38,438 nt of DNA from a virus (taxonomy: Duplodnaviria > Heunggongvirae > Uroviricota > Caudoviricetes), in the IMG/VR virus record IMGVR_UViG_2534682287_000008, positions 1-38,438 of that record; one strand, 5' to 3'. Positions 1 to 31,243 of the stretch are shown piece after piece; position 1 is the first letter of the stretch; every line of letters begins with the position of its first letter. Position numbers and translations under genes: made by a program. Under the pieces are notes generated by a model. That model was not told where the DNA came from, searched no databases, and saw nothing but the letters and a program-made list of their open reading frames with translations.

Positions 1-1149
1 ATGCTCACCGTTAAGCAGATTGAAGCAGCAAAGCCGAAAGAAAAACCATACCGCCTTCTCGATGGTAATGGACTGTACCTTTATGTCCCTGTATCCGGGA
101 AAAAGGTATGGCAGCTTCGCTACAAGATTGACGGTAAGGAGAAAGTCCTAACCGTAGGAAAATATCCGCTAATGACTTTGCAGGAGGCAAGGGATAAGGC
201 ATGGACTGCGAGGAAAGACATCTCGGTTGGCATCGATCCGGTAAAAGCGAAAAAGGCTTCGTCTAACAACAATTCCTTTAGCGCCATTTACAAGGAATGG
301 TACGAGCACAAGAAGCAAGTCTGGTCAGTAGGCTATGCAAATGAACTTGCAAAAATGTTTGATGACGACATTTTACCTATCATCGGCGGCCTTGAAATTC
401 AGGATATTGAGCCGATGCAACTGCTGGAAGTAATCCGCAGATTTGAAGATCGAGGTGCAATGGAGCGAGCCAACAAAGCCCGCAGAAGATGCGGCGAGGT
501 TTTCCGTTACGCTATTGTCACTGGTAGGGCTAAATATAACCCGGCACCTGACCTTGCTGACGCCATGAAGGGATACCGCAAGAAGAACTTCCCGTTTCTT
601 CCAGCAGACCAGATCCCGGCATTCAACAAAGCACTTGCAACATTTTCAGGAAGTATCGTATCGCTCATTGCGACCAAAGTTTTACGCTACACAGCCCTAA
701 GAACGAAAGAGCTTCGTTCCATGCTATGGAAGAACGTCGATTTTGAAAACAGGATTATCACCATCGACGCCAGTGTGATGAAGGGCCGCAAGATTCATGT
801 AGTACCGATGTCAGACCAGGTGGTTGAACTTCTCACTACGCTAAGCTCAATCACCAAACCAGTATCAGAGTTTGTTTTTGCCGGTCGCAACGATAAGAAG
901 AAGCCAATCTGCGAGAACGCGGTACTGCTTGTGATCAAACAAATCGGCTATGAAGGTCTGGAAAGCGGTCACGGATTCAGGCATGAATTCAGCACGATTA
1001 TGAACGAGCACGAATGGCCTGCTGATGCTATTGAAGTGCAACTGGCACATGCCAACGGCGGTTCTGTGCGTGGAATTTACAACCATGCTCAGTATCTCGA
1101 TAAACGCAGAGAAATGATGCAATGGTGGGCGGACTGGCTTGATAGATAA
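1..1149 (+). CDS. int: Tyrosine integrase, P4-type
   Basis: 382 aa; N-terminus MLTVKQIEAAKPKEKPYRLLDGNGLYLYV typical of P4-family integrases; C-terminal catalytic region with HxxR...Y context; ATG at position 1. Confidence 0.9.
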   Translation: MLTVKQIEAAKPKEKPYRLLDGNGLYLYVPVSGKKVWQLRYKIDGKEKVLTVGKYPLMTLQEARDKAWTARKDISVGIDPVKAKKASSNNNSFSAIYKEWYEHKKQVWSVGYANELAKMFDDDILPIIGGLEIQDIEPMQLLEVIRRFEDRGAMERANKARRRCGEVFRYAIVTGRAKYNPAPDLADAMKGYRKKNFPFLPADQIPAFNKALATFSGSIVSLIATKVLRYTALRTKELRSMLWKNVDFENRIITIDASVMKGRKIHVVPMSDQVVELLTTLSSITKPVSEFVFAGRNDKKKPICENAVLLVIKQIGYEGLESGHGFRHEFSTIMNEHEWPADAIEVQLAHANGGSVRGIYNHAQYLDKRREMMQWWADWLDR

Positions 1150-1332
1150 AGATCACTCATATATCATTGAAAAATGATATAAATTTTATTTACATGTGTT
1201 ACTATTTTTATTGTAATTGTAGTTTGATTTAGAATATAAACGGAAAAACAAATGAGATGGCACTCATTATTCCAATTTTAGAATAAGCAATATTAATATT
1301 GTCATATATAATTTTAATATAAGGGCGTAAAA

Positions 1333-2340
1333 ATGCAGTGGGCTTATAATTTAAGAGTATTTGCCATTTTTATGGTTGTTGTTATACATGTCACAGCTGG
1401 GTATGTTACTTTCGCAGATACTAACCCAAGCTTCTATGGATCTACACTTTGGTGGTCTGCAAATATTCTTGATTCATTCAGCAGATGGAGCGTTCCTGTT
1501 TTTGTTATGTTGAGTGGTTACTTTTTGATAAATGGAACGGATTCTACAATTAGTTTTTACAAAAAAAGAATGACGAGGATATTGATCCCAGTATTGGCAT
1601 GGACGATGATATATATCACATGGACAATATTTAAGTCCTACATCAAAGGTGATATAACTCTAGGGGTTATAACATCAATAAAACAGCTTTTAGCTGGTAA
1701 ACCATATTACCATATGTGGTTTTTATATATGATTCCTTTTTTATATATTATAACGCCTTTTTTAAGAAAAATAATTGCAAAATCAAGTGATAATGAAGTA
1801 ACAATCCTCATTGTAATATGCTCTGCATTGCCATTGATTAATCTAATATACAACAACGTTGTTGGCATGGAAAACAACAAACCGCAATTTTTCATGATAA
1901 CATTTTTAAATTATATAGGCTACTTCGTTATTGGTGGTGTGTTTAGGGCAAAGAAAACAGAAAAACTTTGCATGTGTACTATATTCACATTAATTTCATT
2001 GATAATAACGGCTATTTTAGCTTATAAGTTTGGTCGAGTGTATTTCTATGACTATTTAAGCTTAAATGTTTTTATTTCATCGGTGTTAATATTCGCGATA
2101 TGTTCTTCAATCAATGGTGGAGAGTCGTTATTATCAAAAAAACTAGCAAGCCTAACACTTGGAGTGTATTTAATACATCCTATTTTTATTGAGCTTTACT
2201 CTTATTTATTGAGACATTTATTAAAAATAAATGCATTCTCTATTGTATACATGCTCTTTATGATAGTGGTAGTTTTTGCATCTTCTTTAGCAGCTAGCTT
2301 GATTATTAGTAAATTAAAGTATTTGAATAAGATAATATGA
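1333..2340 (+). CDS. oac: O-antigen acetyltransferase, acyltransferase-3 family (Sf6 Oac-like); lysogenic conversion gene
   Basis: 335 aa polytopic membrane protein; motif RWSVPVFVMLSGYF; strongly AT-rich relative to the rest of the phage; sits between int and tailspike. Confidence 0.8.
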   Translation: MQWAYNLRVFAIFMVVVIHVTAGYVTFADTNPSFYGSTLWWSANILDSFSRWSVPVFVMLSGYFLINGTDSTISFYKKRMTRILIPVLAWTMIYITWTIFKSYIKGDITLGVITSIKQLLAGKPYYHMWFLYMIPFLYIITPFLRKIIAKSSDNEVTILIVICSALPLINLIYNNVVGMENNKPQFFMITFLNYIGYFVIGGVFRAKKTEKLCMCTIFTLISLIITAILAYKFGRVYFYDYLSLNVFISSVLIFAICSSINGGESLLSKKLASLTLGVYLIHPIFIELYSYLLRHLLKINAFSIVYMLFMIVVVFASSLAASLIISKLKYLNKII

Positions 2341-2345
2341 CCAGC

Positions 2346-2376
2346 AATGCCAGCGCACTTGTCATGCGCTGGCATT
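2346..2376. terminator. Hairpin between convergent oac and tailspike genes (possible bidirectional terminator)
   Basis: Inverted repeat AATGCCAGCGCA-cttgtca-TGCGCTGGCATT; flanking T/A-runs are weak. Confidence 0.45.
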
Positions 2377-2378
2377 TA

Positions 2379-4517
2379 TTAAAATGCCATGGGGAAGTTT
2401 GCTGTTAACGGTATAATAGAATATTCTATAGATGTCGGTGGATTTCCTGATGAATAATAATTACCCCTTGCCTGCAAAACAATTAGCCCACTAGAACCTG
2501 TATAACCAGCTCTAAATGATATTTGTTTTAAATTGTTGTCAGTTGTGTTTGGGTCTATTCTTTCGTCTATTGCTGGCTTTAGATCTTGCGCATCGTGAGC
2601 TCCAGAAGAGACAACAAATGTCTGATAGTTATTTTTAATCCCACCATTAACTTTTACCATTAAGAGATAAAGACATCTGTCCGAAGCGTATCCATTATTT
2701 ATCGCGTAATCCAATTCAATTCTTATTATACTCCCATCTTGTTGAGCTGGTATTTCCTTTCTTAAAAGATATGGGCCACGAACAGAGTTATCGTAAGAAC
2801 TTCCAATATAATTACTTCCACCAACGAATGCGGAATTCATTCTCCATATATCCTCAGCAGAAAATAGACCAGAGCTTATATAATTACCACTCCAGACATT
2901 TCTATTTCTTTCAGGTCTTGCATCTATCACCATACCATTACCACCAAAAAGACAATTTCCATTAAAAACGCTCCCAGCGAAATCAGTAGGATTGATGCAT
3001 TGCACTCTAACAGATTTGTCAACTTCACCTGTAATAATTTGAATTATGTTGTTGGATACGTTATTACCAGCACACCAATCACCACCAAATCCATTGTTAT
3101 TATTATCTAATTTTTGCCCTGAAATTCCGTTAAATGTACGTTGCTCTGAGGGGTTATCAGATCCAACATAATAAATAACATTGTTACATACATTTACCAG
3201 TGATGTTCTTAACCATATTCCAAAATCATTAAGTGGGTTTTTTTCAAAATGAAAAACGTTATTACTTATAGATGATCTTCCTCCAAGACCAACTCGTTCA
3301 CCGCCACTTATTAATAACGTCATGGCTTTTACAGAAACATTCCACATTGTGTTATTATCAATAACACATTCAAGACCTCCGGTGAACGTATCAATTTCAC
3401 ATGATGATTCTTCATTCCTATTTATGAACCTATTTCCTGTTGTTTCCCCTCCTACTGTTGTGCTTCCTATTTTATATATATCTGTATTATAACCTGATTG
3501 CATAAACACATCGAATGTATTTCCTGTTACATGGAACATTGATTTTCTTGGTGTTCCCAAATCTACAGAATCAAGCGTATCACCAAGTATTGTTAAATAT
3601 GGGAATATGCTTTCTCCTGGCTGCATATCTGAATTTGATATATATAAATCTGTATTATCATCAGTCGTACAATAGTTATTTTTAACTGAAATATGTACGC
3701 TGGTTGGGTCCTGACAGTTAACCATGATGTAGCCAACACCGCAGTTAAAGCATTGCATATCTTTTATCACCACGCGCGTTGGTAAATTCGCCAGCCCATC
3801 AGGGTAATCATTGAAAATTACCTGAGGACGCTGGGTGTGGTATGCATTTGCGGTGAACTTACCGCCGATAATCTCTACTGATTTTGCGCCAAGCGGATGG
3901 AAAATATAATCAATGCCATTGAAGGTAAATTCTCCAGTAGAAGCATCGATAATGATGTCTCCTGGGATGGTGACGGGGGCTGTTACATCGTACACACCTG
4001 ATGCTACAACTCTCGTTTTGTTTGCAACCGCATAATTTACAGCTGCCTGTAATTTTTCTGACGCATTACTTCCGGGGAATACCTCGGGGACAACCCATTT
4101 GATGGCATCCTGTACCGTGCCATATGGCATAATCCCAACAAGACCAGCGCCGTCTTGATTAGAAAGCCTAATCTCAAATTGATCAGGGGCGTACTTCAGC
4201 ACATTTGGGAATTTGAACTGCTGTGCACCATACGCATCATAAACAGCCATAGAATGGCCTTGCTCAGTTACGAATTTGGCAATCTGTCCGTTATATACCG
4301 GATATCCAGCAGCATTAATGATGATTGGTTGCGAAACAGGAACGTGAGAGCCGTCTTCGTTCTCCACATAAACCTGAATCTGGTTTTCTGGATTTACCGG
4401 ATCAGTGTCAATTTTACCGATATAAATTTTACCATTGGCTACGGCTTTAAAAGAACGAGCCATAGTGAAGAGTTGCGAAGGCATGCTTACCACAACATTT
4501 GCGGTGATATCTGACAT
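2379..4517 (-). CDS. Tailspike protein: conserved P22-type N-terminal head-binding domain, divergent C-terminal receptor-binding domain
   Basis: N-terminus MSDITANVVVSMPSQLFTMARSFKAVANGKIYIGKIDTDPVNPENQ matches P22-family tailspike head-binding domain; ATG at 4515-4517 with GGAG 8 nt upstream; ORF track's longer start is probably upstream extension. Confidence 0.85.
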   Translation of the reverse strand: MSDITANVVVSMPSQLFTMARSFKAVANGKIYIGKIDTDPVNPENQIQVYVENEDGSHVPVSQPIIINAAGYPVYNGQIAKFVTEQGHSMAVYDAYGAQQFKFPNVLKYAPDQFEIRLSNQDGAGLVGIMPYGTVQDAIKWVVPEVFPGSNASEKLQAAVNYAVANKTRVVASGVYDVTAPVTIPGDIIIDASTGEFTFNGIDYIFHPLGAKSVEIIGGKFTANAYHTQRPQVIFNDYPDGLANLPTRVVIKDMQCFNCGVGYIMVNCQDPTSVHISVKNNYCTTDDNTDLYISNSDMQPGESIFPYLTILGDTLDSVDLGTPRKSMFHVTGNTFDVFMQSGYNTDIYKIGSTTVGGETTGNRFINRNEESSCEIDTFTGGLECVIDNNTMWNVSVKAMTLLISGGERVGLGGRSSISNNVFHFEKNPLNDFGIWLRTSLVNVCNNVIYYVGSDNPSEQRTFNGISGQKLDNNNNGFGGDWCAGNNVSNNIIQIITGEVDKSVRVQCINPTDFAGSVFNGNCLFGGNGMVIDARPERNRNVWSGNYISSGLFSAEDIWRMNSAFVGGSNYIGSSYDNSVRGPYLLRKEIPAQQDGSIIRIELDYAINNGYASDRCLYLLMVKVNGGIKNNYQTFVVSSGAHDAQDLKPAIDERIDPNTTDNNLKQISFRAGYTGSSGLIVLQARGNYYSSGNPPTSIEYSIIPLTANFPMAF

Positions 4518-4638
4518 TTCATTGCTCCAAACGAATGATATGATGCAACCATGATGTAATTGCATACCGAAATGGTACTATTGAGTGTTTATCCAGTAGG
4601 CTACGATGCCATTCCACCCAACTGGTGAGGCATCAAGG

Positions 4639-4899
4639 ATGTACAGCAAATACGACGAGGCGCAGTTTCACTTGAGACTTCCGCATGAACTCCACGCGAA
4701 AATTAAGCAGCGTGCGAAGATGAATAACAGGTCGCTGAACTCAGAGATAATTGCAGCGATTGAAGAATCATTGGCTAAACAAAGCTCTGCATCTGTTTAC
4801 ATTGACGATGCAGAGCGTATGGCAGAACAACAATCTGATATGGTTAAGAAAATTGTCTTTGGTACGCTCAAGGAGCTATATAAAAAAGACAGCAGCTAA
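4639..4899 (+). CDS. mnt: Mnt-like ribbon-helix-helix repressor (immI remnant)
   Basis: C-terminus DAERMAEQQSDMVKKIVFGTLKELYKK resembles P22 Mnt tetramerisation region; N-terminal arm QFHLRLPHELHAKIK; start chosen at MYSKYDE. Confidence 0.75.
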   Translation: MYSKYDEAQFHLRLPHELHAKIKQRAKMNNRSLNSEIIAAIEESLAKQSSASVYIDDAERMAEQQSDMVKKIVFGTLKELYKKDSS

Positions 4900-29715: not shown

Positions 29716-30042
29716 ATGGATGCACAAACACGCCGCCGCGAACGTCGCGCAGAGAAACAGGCTCAATGGAAAGCAGCAAATCCCCTGTTGGTTGGGGTAA
29801 GCGCAAAGCCAGTTAACCGCCCTATTCTCTCGCTGAATCGCAAACCGAAATCACGAGTAGAAAGCGCACTGAATCCGATAGACCTTACGGTGCTGGCTGA
29901 ATACCACGAACAGATTGAAAGCAACCTGCAACGTATTGAGCGCAAGAATCAGCGCACATGGTACAGCAAGCCACGCAGTGAAATGGGTGTGACTTGTGTT
30001 GGTCGCCAGAAAATGAAATTAGGCAGCAAGCCACTTATTTGA
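29716..30042 (+). CDS. N: Antiterminator N (lambda-type)
   Basis: MDAQTRRRERRAEKQAQWKAANPLLVGVSAKPVNRPILSLNRKPKSRVESALNP matches lambda N. Confidence 0.9.
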   Translation: MDAQTRRRERRAEKQAQWKAANPLLVGVSAKPVNRPILSLNRKPKSRVESALNPIDLTVLAEYHEQIESNLQRIERKNQRTWYSKPRSEMGVTCVGRQKMKLGSKPLI

Positions 30043-30050
30043 GGTGAGAT

Positions 30051-30521
30051 ATGACAAAATCATGGAGCGTACCTTTTCCTGAATCAGAAACTGAACATGA
30101 TGGAATGCCTGTTTTCTGGAGATTCCAGGCGACAGTTGAAGAAGATGGAATCAAAATATTCGCACTTCAATATATAGCTTTTCATCAGACAGAGCATTAT
30201 GCATGGTTGGTTCCTGCGCATTGGATTGTTAATTTTAAACCAGCACCAAATCAGTGGTTACAGGAATGGAAACAAAAGAGAAATAGATATGCAATTAAGA
30301 AAGTAGCAAAAAATGCAGAAAGATCTTTTGCATTCCCAACGAAGAAACTTGCCATTGAAAGTTTATTGCGCCGGAAGAAATACCATTTAATGAGAATCAA
30401 ACAGGATTTGGCTGTTGTATCAACTCTTGTTGATGGGATGAAGAATATTGATACATCAACACCAGATATTGAATATAACTTTGGGCACAACCAAGAAACA
30501 GAAAATTGGGTATTTTATTAG
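30051..30521 (+). CDS. Hypothetical protein in the ral/sieB slot downstream of N
   Basis: 156 aa, GAGGTGAG Shine-Dalgarno; AT-rich 3' half; no recognisable family. Confidence 0.5.
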   Translation: MTKSWSVPFPESETEHDGMPVFWRFQATVEEDGIKIFALQYIAFHQTEHYAWLVPAHWIVNFKPAPNQWLQEWKQKRNRYAIKKVAKNAERSFAFPTKKLAIESLLRRKKYHLMRIKQDLAVVSTLVDGMKNIDTSTPDIEYNFGHNQETENWVFY

Positions 30522-30625
30522 TACGAGTAAGCACTGTGTATTCATTCCAACGAGTGAATACACGGAGCAATGTCGCTCGTAACTAAACAGGAGCCGACTT
30601 GTTCTGATTATTTGAAATCTTCTTT

Positions 30626-30649
30626 GCCCTCCAGTATGAGGGCTTTTTT
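30626..30649 (+). terminator. Rho-independent terminator downstream of the 156-aa gene
   Basis: GCCCTC-cagtat-GAGGGC followed by TTTTTT. Confidence 0.65.
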
Positions 30650-30715
30650 ATATGCATACCAATAACGCTTCACTCGAGGCGTTTTCGTTATGCAATCAAA
30701 CAGAAGGAGTTACCC

Positions 30716-30850
30716 ATGATGCACTTTCAGCTCGCGGGTAGCGGCGTCATGTCCGCTTTCTACCCGCACGAATCTGAATTATCACGCCGAGTTAAACAAT
30801 TAATCAGTGCAGCAAAGAAACAACTGGAGGCGTTATGCGCAATGAAATAG
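30716..30850 (+). CDS. cIII: CIII-like small protein
   Basis: 44 aa read by hand; HESELSRRVKQLISAAKKQL resembles lambda CIII central helix; AAGGAG Shine-Dalgarno. Confidence 0.5.
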   Translation: MMHFQLAGSGVMSAFYPHESELSRRVKQLISAAKKQLEALCAMK

Positions 30851-30987
30851 CCATCAATCACCAGATGCTTCGTGCAGCACAAAACAAAGCAGTAATAGCC
30901 AGATTTATTGGTGATTCAAAAATGTGGCTTGAAGCAAATAAAGCGATGAAATCAGCTATCAATATTCCGTGGTATCGCAGGAAATGA
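30835..30987 (+). CDS. kil: Kil-like small protein
   Basis: 50 aa read by hand; motif IARFIGDSKMW resembles recalled lambda Kil; overlaps cIII-like stop. Confidence 0.4.
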   Translation: MRNEIAINHQMLRAAQNKAVIARFIGDSKMWLEANKAMKSAINIPWYRRK

Positions 30988-31142
30988 GTTTTACAGATAA
31001 CTGGTCAGACGAAGAATTCATTCGTCAGATGAAAGAATTAATCGGTAACGAAGGAGATATTCATGTCACTTGCAACCACAGTGAAGGAGAGCAAGTTACA
31101 GAGACGCATGTACACGCAGAAAGCTCTCTGGTATCGCCATAA
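30984..31142 (+). CDS. Small hypothetical protein upstream of erf (Arf-like by position)
   Basis: 52 aa read by hand; ATGA overlap with preceding ORF. Confidence 0.3.
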   Translation: MSFTDNWSDEEFIRQMKELIGNEGDIHVTCNHSEGEQVTETHVHAESSLVSP

Positions 31143-31243
31143 TGGCGACCGCGAAGGAATGCGGGTATGCCTTAATTTGTCCCGAGTCGAAGTATTAAAT
31201 CAGCGTTATTTCCTTGGGCCATGCCCATTCTGAGAACAAACAT

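Follow-up and report, generated by a model that had tools for sequence, protein, structure and literature searches.

A low-GC cassette between the integrase and tailspike genes of an Sf6/HK620-like prophage probably encodes an O-antigen O-acetyltransferase

What is the function of the very AT-rich gene that separates the integrase from the tailspike at the left end of an Sf6-like prophage? The prophage in question is IMG/VR record IMGVR_UViG_2534682287_000008 (38,438 nucleotides, the whole of which is called here the window), and the gene is an open reading frame (ORF) at 1333-2340 for which an earlier note (hereafter, the original prediction) had proposed a role in serotype conversion. We think it likely that this ORF encodes a phage-borne O-antigen O-acetyltransferase acting in lysogens on the O153/O178-type O-antigen, and that a prophage of the Sf6/HK620 kind (Lederbergvirus), integrating at argW, has in this region its lysogenic-conversion cassette, the two statements being made jointly and with the same confidence. 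The window indeed belongs to this phage type: its first 25 kb are 97.0% identical to Sf6 (over 57% of their length), 95.7% identical to HK620 and 97.1% identical to vB_EcoP-683R2. The left end is arranged as follows (GC stands for guanine plus cytosine content, AT3 for the acyltransferase-3 domain).

1-1149, + strand: IntS-type tyrosine integrase gene, int (Pfam Phage_integrase, Phage_int_M and Arm-DNA-bind_3), which bounds the cassette on the left
1150-1332 (183 nt), + strand: intergenic AT-rich spacer of 21.3% GC, where the promoter of the acyltransferase gene presumably lies
1321-1325, + strand: likely ribosome-binding site AAGGG, 7 nt before the ATG at 1333, as read from the sequence
1333-2340, + strand: AT3-only membrane acyltransferase of 335 amino acids (aa), putative O-antigen O-acetyltransferase
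2346-2376, no strand assigned: GC-rich hairpin with perfect arms of 12 bp around a 7-nt loop, placed where the acyltransferase and tailspike genes converge; probable terminator
2379-3650, - strand: distal part of the tailspike gene (C-terminal, roughly aa 290-712), the AT-rich half of the receptor-binding region
3651-4517, - strand: proximal part of the tailspike gene, which encodes the head-binding domain (4179-4517) and the beginning of the receptor-binding region, and bounds the cassette on the right

In three matching E. coli genomes int lies 161 nt past the tRNA-Arg gene argW, and the acyltransferase ORF follows int on the same strand, 183 nt downstream. Homologues begin with an identical M-x-W at the position of the ATG at 1333. 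On the other side, 38 nt separate the ORF from the tailspike gene, which is convergent with it and has its stop codon at 2379-2381. The tailspike has an N-terminus of the Sf6 kind (Pfam Head_binding, E 1.7e-64; 88% identity to the first 121 aa of the Sf6 tailspike).

The nature of the protein can be stated plainly. It matches Pfam Acyl_transf_3 (PF01757) over its full length (residues 6-319 on profile positions 6-322 of 326; E 2.8e-42, 145.4 bits for a gathering cut-off of 31), as well as PHROG 3333, 'O-acetyltransferase' (E 2.5e-60), so that the original prediction was right in placing an acyltransferase-3 membrane protein next to the integrase. The chain ends after helix 10, and because it has neither a hit to an SGNH domain nor an eleventh helix, its architecture is AT3-only. 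The hydropathy profile (nine peaks of at least 1.5, plus a less hydrophobic segment at 40-66) fits the ten predicted transmembrane helices, and the AlphaFold (AF2) model is all-helical, with about ten long helices (predicted local distance difference test, pLDDT, 92; predicted template-modelling score, pTM, 0.91). Neither a sequence search nor Foldseek returned a solved structure resembling it (no significant match). The exact protein occurs on 114 contigs, where the database annotation is just 'acyltransferase'.

Is this protein equipped to be a carbohydrate acetyltransferase? According to Pearson et al. (PMC7448272), 30 characterised AT3 enzymes of this type share an R/K-X10-H motif in helix 1 (the His being the invariant H25 of OafA), the F and G of an FFXISG motif (F41 and G46 of OafA), an RXXR motif that follows helix 2 and that is indispensable in Oac and OafB, and a further invariant Gly (G202 of OafA). 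All of the residues that are invariant or essential in those 30 enzymes are present in the window protein. We aligned it with two sets of homologues, one of 14 sequences (including Sf6 Oac, phiV10 Oac and the AT3 half of the M9-type enzyme described below) and one of 40. R8-X10-H19 corresponds to the first motif, with H19 invariant and R8 at least 90% conserved in both alignments; F57-V-M-L-S61-G62 corresponds to the second, F57, S61 and G62 all being invariant among the 14; R79-M-T-R82 corresponds to the third, with R79 invariant. G201 is invariant among the 40 sequences and nearly so among the 14, and its equivalence to G202 of OafA is suggested by position, since OafA was outside the alignment. 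Across the 40 homologues H19, S61, G62, R79 and G201 are all invariant.

Where does such a gene come from? The GC content is 30.0% in 1150-2377 and 30.6% in the ORF, compared with 47.6% in the remainder of the window (4566 to the end; standard deviation 2.5% and minimum 40.5% in windows of the same size), and the lowest-GC 1228-bp window of the whole 38.4 kb begins at 1101. The original prediction of a region much more AT-rich than the rest of the prophage is thus borne out, but the limits that it gave (1150-2377) were too narrow: low GC persists as far as about 3650, across the distal part of the tailspike gene (34.9% in 2379-3648, with 22% at third codon positions, GC3), so that the island takes in the receptor-binding part of the tailspike. 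It could be objected that low GC merely reflects a membrane protein rich in Ile, Phe, Leu, Tyr and Lys, and not a foreign origin, all the more as the protein is very hydrophobic (grand average of hydropathy 0.86). However, the bias is not a by-product of hydrophobicity, because synonymous sites show it too (GC3 is 29.5% in the acyltransferase ORF and 51.2% in int); moreover, the non-coding spacer is even poorer in GC than the ORF, the soluble distal part of the tailspike is also low, and the borders in composition are those at which homology and divergence break. We consider that this explanation has practically no chance of being the right one.

These breaks describe an exchanged unit. Sf6 and the window are collinear up to the last int codons and then diverge completely. 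When 50,697 phage records were searched for near-identical DNA, none had the cassette and the match was confined to the last 52 nt of int; likewise, 889 E. coli records match only these last 52 nt of int in the query, and nothing beyond the int stop. At the right border, the E. coli genomes M9, M6 and E62 match the window at 3648-4700 (92.6% identity), the match ending where GC drops, and the distal part of the tailspike gene (2379-3650) is matched at the DNA level, among complete E. coli genomes, by none but the three that carry the full cassette. One of these three is the O178:H19 strain 2012C-4431, and comparison with its copy shows that each 250 bp between 1234 and about 4000 holds 1-3 differences, versus 10-20 per 250 bp in int and the proximal tailspike. 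The acyltransferase and distal tailspike have a synonymous divergence of 0.025-0.033, versus 0.09-0.15 in int and 0.12-0.13 in the proximal tailspike. The block is therefore younger than its flanks, as the spread of a cassette by recombination would produce, and the unit of exchange appears to be the acyltransferase together with the receptor-binding part of the tailspike. A slot between int/att and the tailspike that is subject to mosaic exchange, with breaks at the int stop and inside the tailspike, is what one expects of a serotype-converting module, and the horizontal acquisition that had been proposed on grounds of AT content finds here indirect support.

The receptor-binding region of the tailspike is itself finely mosaic, as seen from an IMG/VR contig (L027, UViG_3300045988_129221) in which the acyltransferase and the far C-terminus of the tailspike are identical to those of the window and a patch equivalent to window positions 3200-3800 is only 67-85% identical. 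As regards the other end of this gene, the start called by the ORF finder (4565) is 16 codons upstream of the Met at 4517 used by RefSeq and by homologues (MSDITANVV...), and the true tailspike gene is most likely 2379-4517.

Which hosts carry the cassette? It is present in full in three of 5426 complete E. coli genomes, those of 2012C-4431, SY038 (Korea) and BKQWHE (Malawi), at argW in every case. The O-antigen gene cluster of 2012C-4431 contains wzx and wzy of the 'O153/O178 family' (NCBI annotation) and has a GC content of 28.1%, close to the 30.6% of the cassette. Only 16 of the 5426 genomes have O153/O178 wzx-wzy, and the three carriers are all among them, for which the probability by chance is about 2e-8 if the genomes are taken as independent; judging from the alleles of the flanking genes fadL and yfdF, two or more host lineages are represented. 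An association with one host O-antigen type, here in 3/3 carriers, is again the mark of a serotype-converting module. In BKQWHE (L001, NZ_CP170298.1, 4902-10206) the prophage is reduced to a remnant in which only int, the acyltransferase, the tailspike and an Arc-family gene are intact, followed by pseudogene fragments and emrY, and its cassette is 99.8% identical to that of the window. The retention of the acyltransferase in a prophage otherwise deleted fits a gene that benefits the host.

Three more of the 16 O153/O178 genomes, M9, M6 and E62, have a tailspike that is 74% identical to that of the window (near-identical to about residue 305, roughly 60% thereafter), and in these the slot holds a 651-aa AT3-SGNH acyltransferase (PF19040) with no significant BLASTP similarity to the window protein (E 0.49). 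This M9-type cassette was found only in these three genomes, at two chromosomal sites (the tor region in M9, argW in E62).

2710-6870 of L009 (E. coli M9, NZ_CP010196.1): M9-type cassette
2710-6870 of L010 (E62): M9-type cassette

In M9 and M6 the prophage end adjoins torT/torR and not argW. The O178 repeat has reportedly been described as related to an O-acetylated K antigen, a point that plays no part in our argument. As for the serogroups themselves, DebRoy et al. cite Iguchi et al. for O153 and O178 O-antigen gene clusters that are 99.9% identical, and contest the grouping of O153 with O178. As a corollary of the speculative arms race considered below, these two serogroups could differ by the presence or type of a prophage acetyltransferase, and not by their chromosomal gene clusters.

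How does the window gene compare with known systems? It shares with Sf6 Oac (gene 15), which is known from experiment, the Pfam family, the AT3-only architecture (333 aa in Sf6, 335 here, no SGNH domain), the slot and orientation (int, then oac, preceded in Sf6 by an oac promoter region, then a terminator or hairpin, then a convergent tailspike, in backbones that are 97% identical over their shared parts) and the R/K-X10-H, F..SG and R..R motifs, which align. It differs in sequence (25% identity, 23.9 bits, pairwise E 0.005), in GC content (41.8% in Sf6 oac, 30.6% here), in host O-antigen (that of S. flexneri, as opposed to the O153/O178 genotype of the window cassette) and in the adjacent tailspike receptor-binding domain, which is unrelated. 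Because identity is only 25%, the window gene is not an orthologue of Sf6 oac and merely occupies the same slot; the term 'oac-like' of the original prediction is thus correct only at the level of the AT3 family. A tblastn search of the 50,697 phage records at 1e-5 misses Sf6; its best protein matches are Vibrio phage yong1 (38.7%) and phiV10 Oac (33.8% over aa 7-160, the first half; 27% in the alignment). The latter is also AT3-only, of 338 aa and 30.9% GC, and is convergent with the gene for a receptor-binding tail protein (tail fibre). It differs in belonging to a Uetakevirus and in concerning another O-antigen, and its record is annotated with acetylation of the host O-antigen (O157) and superinfection immunity. 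We propose phiV10 Oac as the functional model for the window enzyme.

AT3-SGNH enzymes (OafA and OafB of Salmonella, the 651-aa protein of M9, M6 and E62, those of contig L020 and of Hafnia prophages) have the same AT3 core residues, and the M9-type enzyme has in addition the same slot, a homologous tailspike alongside and hosts of the same O-genotype; the window protein is without their eleventh helix and periplasmic SGNH domain. HGSNAT and GWT1, eukaryotic proteins with solved structures, transfer an acyl group from acyl-CoA on the cytosolic side to a glycan across the membrane; these differ from the window protein (10-16% identity, extra domains, other acceptors), the Foldseek match being not significant (E 1.9, TM score 0.48). 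Conversion cargo by int/att and the tailspike is also provided by the gtrABC modules of P22, SfV/SfX and the K-12 CPS-53 remnant (yfdGHI), which are retained in argW prophage remnants; however, gtrABC works by glucosylation via undecaprenyl phosphate glucose (Und-P-Glc), with three proteins unrelated to the window acyltransferase. Seroconversion genes near int-att-xis are also described in the Kapi1 paper (PMC8787464). P22-like phages are well known to carry seroconversion genes of the AT3-only kind between int and the tailspike, and the window gene is a further, uncharacterised example of these; the finding in itself is an expected feature of Sf6-like prophages.

The association of the acyltransferase with the tailspike is not limited to the window. 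An AT3-family gene, or its remnant, is convergent to the tailspike gene in all seven P22-like prophage lineages with this tailspike family that were examined, with tailspike identities to the window down to 49%. These seven are the window type, the M9 type and the five that follow (percentages after 'tailspike' are identities to the window's).

L005 (Logan contig): tailspike 52%; convergent partner AT3-only, 53% identical
L023 / L027: tailspike 91%; convergent partner the identical AT3-only enzyme
L020 / L021 (E. coli, argW): tailspike 78%; convergent partner AT3-SGNH
Citrobacter freundii: tailspike 67%; convergent partner an SGNH-only ORF, probably a truncated gene
Hafnia paralvei: tailspike 49%; convergent partner AT3-SGNH, 52% identical to the M9 enzyme

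In ten of 20 IMG/VR loci with acyltransferase relatives, the next ORF downstream is convergent and at least 600 codons long, and in two of these ten the integrase is 99% identical to that of the window, yet the AT3 and tailspike types are others. Siphovirus relatives (swi2, 68.5% identical, and contig L022) have the receptor-binding domain in common and no adjacent acyltransferase. In the Citrobacter freundii case (L024 7210-8160, from AP025035.1) the SGNH ORF is of 316 aa, without an AT3 domain, and the prophage lies beside torS. The AT3-SGNH enzymes of L020 (5532-7484) and L009 (2710-4665), 65% identical overall, are almost identical up to about residue 315, through the AT3 domain, and strongly diverged in the linker and SGNH half, as if the domain presumed to confer substrate specificity had been swapped.

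An extra C-terminal esterase domain of the GDSL/SGNH type (Pfam PF13472, E 4e-13 and 1e-12) is found in two members of the tailspike family. The two proteins come first below, followed by the loci at which such tailspikes were noticed.

P0137: esterase-bearing tailspike of a prophage, 946 aa
P0147: esterase-bearing tailspike of a siphovirus-type contig, 959 aa
L020, 2625-7484 (E. coli GCA_038072575.1, argW): esterase-bearing locus, 78% to the window receptor-binding domain
L022, 6001-8880 (siphovirus-type contig): esterase-bearing locus, 69% to the window receptor-binding domain

The only sequence match of this domain in the PDB is chain 4qnl_A, a 'tail fiber protein' (E 1.6e-5), which we take to be the deacetylating tailspike gp63.1 of phage G7C, and its phage relatives are annotated as acetylesterases or tail spikes. 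An ester-cleaving domain on relatives of the tailspike is what would be expected if the receptor of this tailspike were O-acetylated in some hosts, and it suggests deacetylating tailspikes aimed at the same receptor. One is tempted to see here an arms race by O-acetylation of the O153/O178-type O-antigen, among phages that share one tailspike family: two unrelated cassettes (AT3-only and AT3-SGNH) would mark lysogens differently, the distal domain of the tailspike would diversify along with them, and some relatives would answer with a deacetylating esterase fused to the same tailspike. We present this scenario, with which the data are compatible, as a speculation that we would ourselves rather bet against.

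The mechanism that we favour for the window gene follows that of HGSNAT and GWT1. The ten-helix enzyme of the inner membrane would accept acetyl from the cytoplasm, where acetyl-CoA is the most probable donor, and pass it across the membrane by way of the conserved core (R8, H19, F57/S61/G62, R79/R82, G201), and the O153/O178-type O-antigen would then be O-acetylated, on one of its sugars, at the periplasmic side. How AT3-only enzymes deliver acetyl to the sugar without an SGNH domain is a mechanism described as unknown (PMC7448272). The modified polymer would be the receptor of the phage's own tailspike, and lysogens would therefore be expected to block adsorption of the same and related phages, and to present an altered antigenic surface. 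Such effects (masking of the receptor or exclusion of superinfecting phages, and antigenic change) are known for Sf6 and phiV10. Transcription would start from a promoter of the gene's own, presumed to lie in the AT-rich spacer, and would end at the hairpin at 2346-2376; the low-GC unit would move between phage backbones by recombination in the conserved flanks, int on one side and the tailspike N-terminus on the other.

Several points weigh against an O-antigen O-acetyltransferase and should be acknowledged. No homologue characterised by biochemistry or serology is more than 40% identical to the protein. The link with the O-genotype comes from complete carrier genomes and not from the window's own host, and the three carriers may amount to as few as two independent acquisitions. 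Our literature search gave no statement of O-acetylation for the O178 or O153 O-polysaccharide, and a review that treats their sugars and genetics has no statement on acetylation in its main text (PMC7685785). AT-rich DNA of this kind might be silenced, for instance by H-NS, and no promoter was found above chance (11 promoter-like hexamer pairs in 1000-4800, compared with 16.8 +/- 4.6 in shuffles). Homologues of about 40% identity occur beside P2-like prophage integrases, in a genomic island and in an integron-like array, and none in O-antigen clusters; being mobile cargo outside such clusters, they are therefore uninformative about the acceptor. Finally, AT3 enzymes also acylate enterobacterial common antigen (ECA), peptidoglycan, osmoregulated glucans and exopolysaccharides.

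This last fact, together with the location of the distant homologues, invites the alternative that the enzyme is active on another envelope glycan (ECA, the lipopolysaccharide core, colanic acid or capsule, peptidoglycan, periplasmic glucans), acceptors that all fall within the range of the AT3 family (PMC7448272). NCBIfam has no specific family for the protein, giving only a weak, sub-threshold match to the VanT membrane domain, and the PHROG family that covers the first 235 residues of the tailspike is labelled 'colanic acid degradation', both of which would suit such an acceptor. However, the cassette is limited to one O-antigen genotype, which is unexpected for a modifier of ECA, core or peptidoglycan, and the gene is consistently paired with a tailspike receptor-binding domain and fills the slot of Sf6 oac; we regard another acceptor as improbable.

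Could the gene, instead, be a silent or decaying passenger, AT-rich acquired DNA that is repressed or non-functional and has no effect on the lysogen? Very AT-rich DNA is typically bound by H-NS in E. coli, the promoter scan is compatible with silence, and decay is seen in relatives: besides the SGNH-only ORF of Citrobacter, one E. coli assembly has the acyltransferase as two fragments on one contig (HIH3218011.1, 203 aa, and HIH3218010.1, 135 aa), either a frameshifted copy or an assembly error. Against this, the 335-codon ORF is intact in 4/4 full copies and the same exact protein recurs on the many contigs mentioned above, every residue of the catalytic core is kept, and the gene has survived in a prophage remnant stripped of nearly everything else. 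Comparison with the O178:H19 copy gives 7 synonymous and 2 non-synonymous changes (pN/pS, the ratio of non-synonymous to synonymous differences per site, 0.08), which, small as the numbers are, indicates purifying selection. An inert passenger thus appears to us even less probable than an enzyme with another acceptor, and we maintain that the gene most likely serves O-antigen O-acetylation.

If this is true, the gene is the determinant of an O-acetyl modification on the O153/O178-type O-antigen; Shiga-toxin-producing isolates and invasive neonatal ones are among those of serogroup O178. In-silico serotyping based on wzx/wzy would miss the modification, which could alter reactivity with antisera, vaccine epitopes and susceptibility to phages. 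Two non-homologous acyltransferases, an exchangeable tailspike half and esterase-armed relatives would also make up a compact natural system for the writing and erasing of O-acetyl receptor marks by phages, and the window enzyme bears on the question of how AT3-only proteins work without an SGNH partner domain.

Is there any regulatory signal around the gene? Two elements of the spacer have to be considered, in addition to the hairpin at 2346-2376.

1160-1181 (arms 1160-1168 and 1173-1181), no strand assigned: perfect 9-bp A/T-rich palindrome with a GAAA loop, probably without function
1204-1229 (26 nt), + strand: block ATTTTTATTGTAATTGTAGTTTGATT, candidate regulatory element on weak evidence, common to the upstream region of the 53%-identical cassette L005

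The original prediction had pointed to a palindrome at about 1161-1178 as a possible int terminator or oac regulatory site. The palindrome exists, slightly offset, at 1160-1181, but as a structure it is near chance. In favour of an intrinsic terminator of int, or of an operator controlling the acyltransferase, one may note that the perfect 9-bp arms lie just past the int stop codon, with AAATTTTATTT next after them, and that a stem of this length is reached by just 24 of 500 dinucleotide shuffles of the intergenic region. The stem, however, consists of A/T pairs save one C-G pair, its fold of -7.5 kcal/mol (z-score -0.84) is equalled or bettered by 44 of 200 shuffles, and that single C-G pair is broken by an uncompensated change, G1176T, in two of the three other copies (2012C-4431 and SY038). 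Furthermore, the palindrome was not called by the terminator scan and is absent from the upstream region of L005. We have thus rejected it as a terminator or operator, roles that it is unlikely to have.

The structure that stands out in the region is the hairpin at 2346-2376. Its energy is -22.9 kcal/mol on the + strand (z-score -2.9) and -23.5 on the - strand (z-score -4.0), a stem as long is found in 4 of 500 shuffles, and there is no difference in 38 nt across the four copies. It has a modest T-tract on the + strand (ATTTATT) and a poor one on the - strand, and the terminator scan made no call, but the hairpin stands in the position equivalent to the annotated oac terminator of Sf6, and likely acts as a terminator.

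Two weak leads to a promoter come from the spacer. The four copies are invariant over 1234-1345 and show 5-6 substitutions in 1152-1233. The block at 1204-1229 has a local alignment score of 13 with L005, reached by 29 of 1000 dinucleotide shuffles. A permissive Rfam search of 900-4800 gave one hit only, at chance level (E 0.82).

A few minor observations can be added. The second-lowest GC stretch of the window is at about 30000-31200 (39.5% in 30001-31000), with a 156-codon ORF at 30051-30521 and then some 700 nt without an ORF of at least 70 codons. Among the distant homologues, an AT3-only protein of 40% identity is present in at least two copies on a JGI contig (3300056625, Ga0558121_01158; our loci L013/L014), within a long same-strand array of small ORFs; this array has repeated units and adjoining transposase genes of the IS21 type, and resembles a chromosomal integron cassette array. 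Beyond the tailspike, a gene of the Arc/Mnt ribbon-helix-helix type (97 aa; 4606-4899, + strand) is divergent from it; the best PHROG label of its product, 'partition protein ATPase', looks like a mislabel. This Arc-like gene is absent from the copies of 2012C-4431 and SY038, and present in BKQWHE and in the M9 type.

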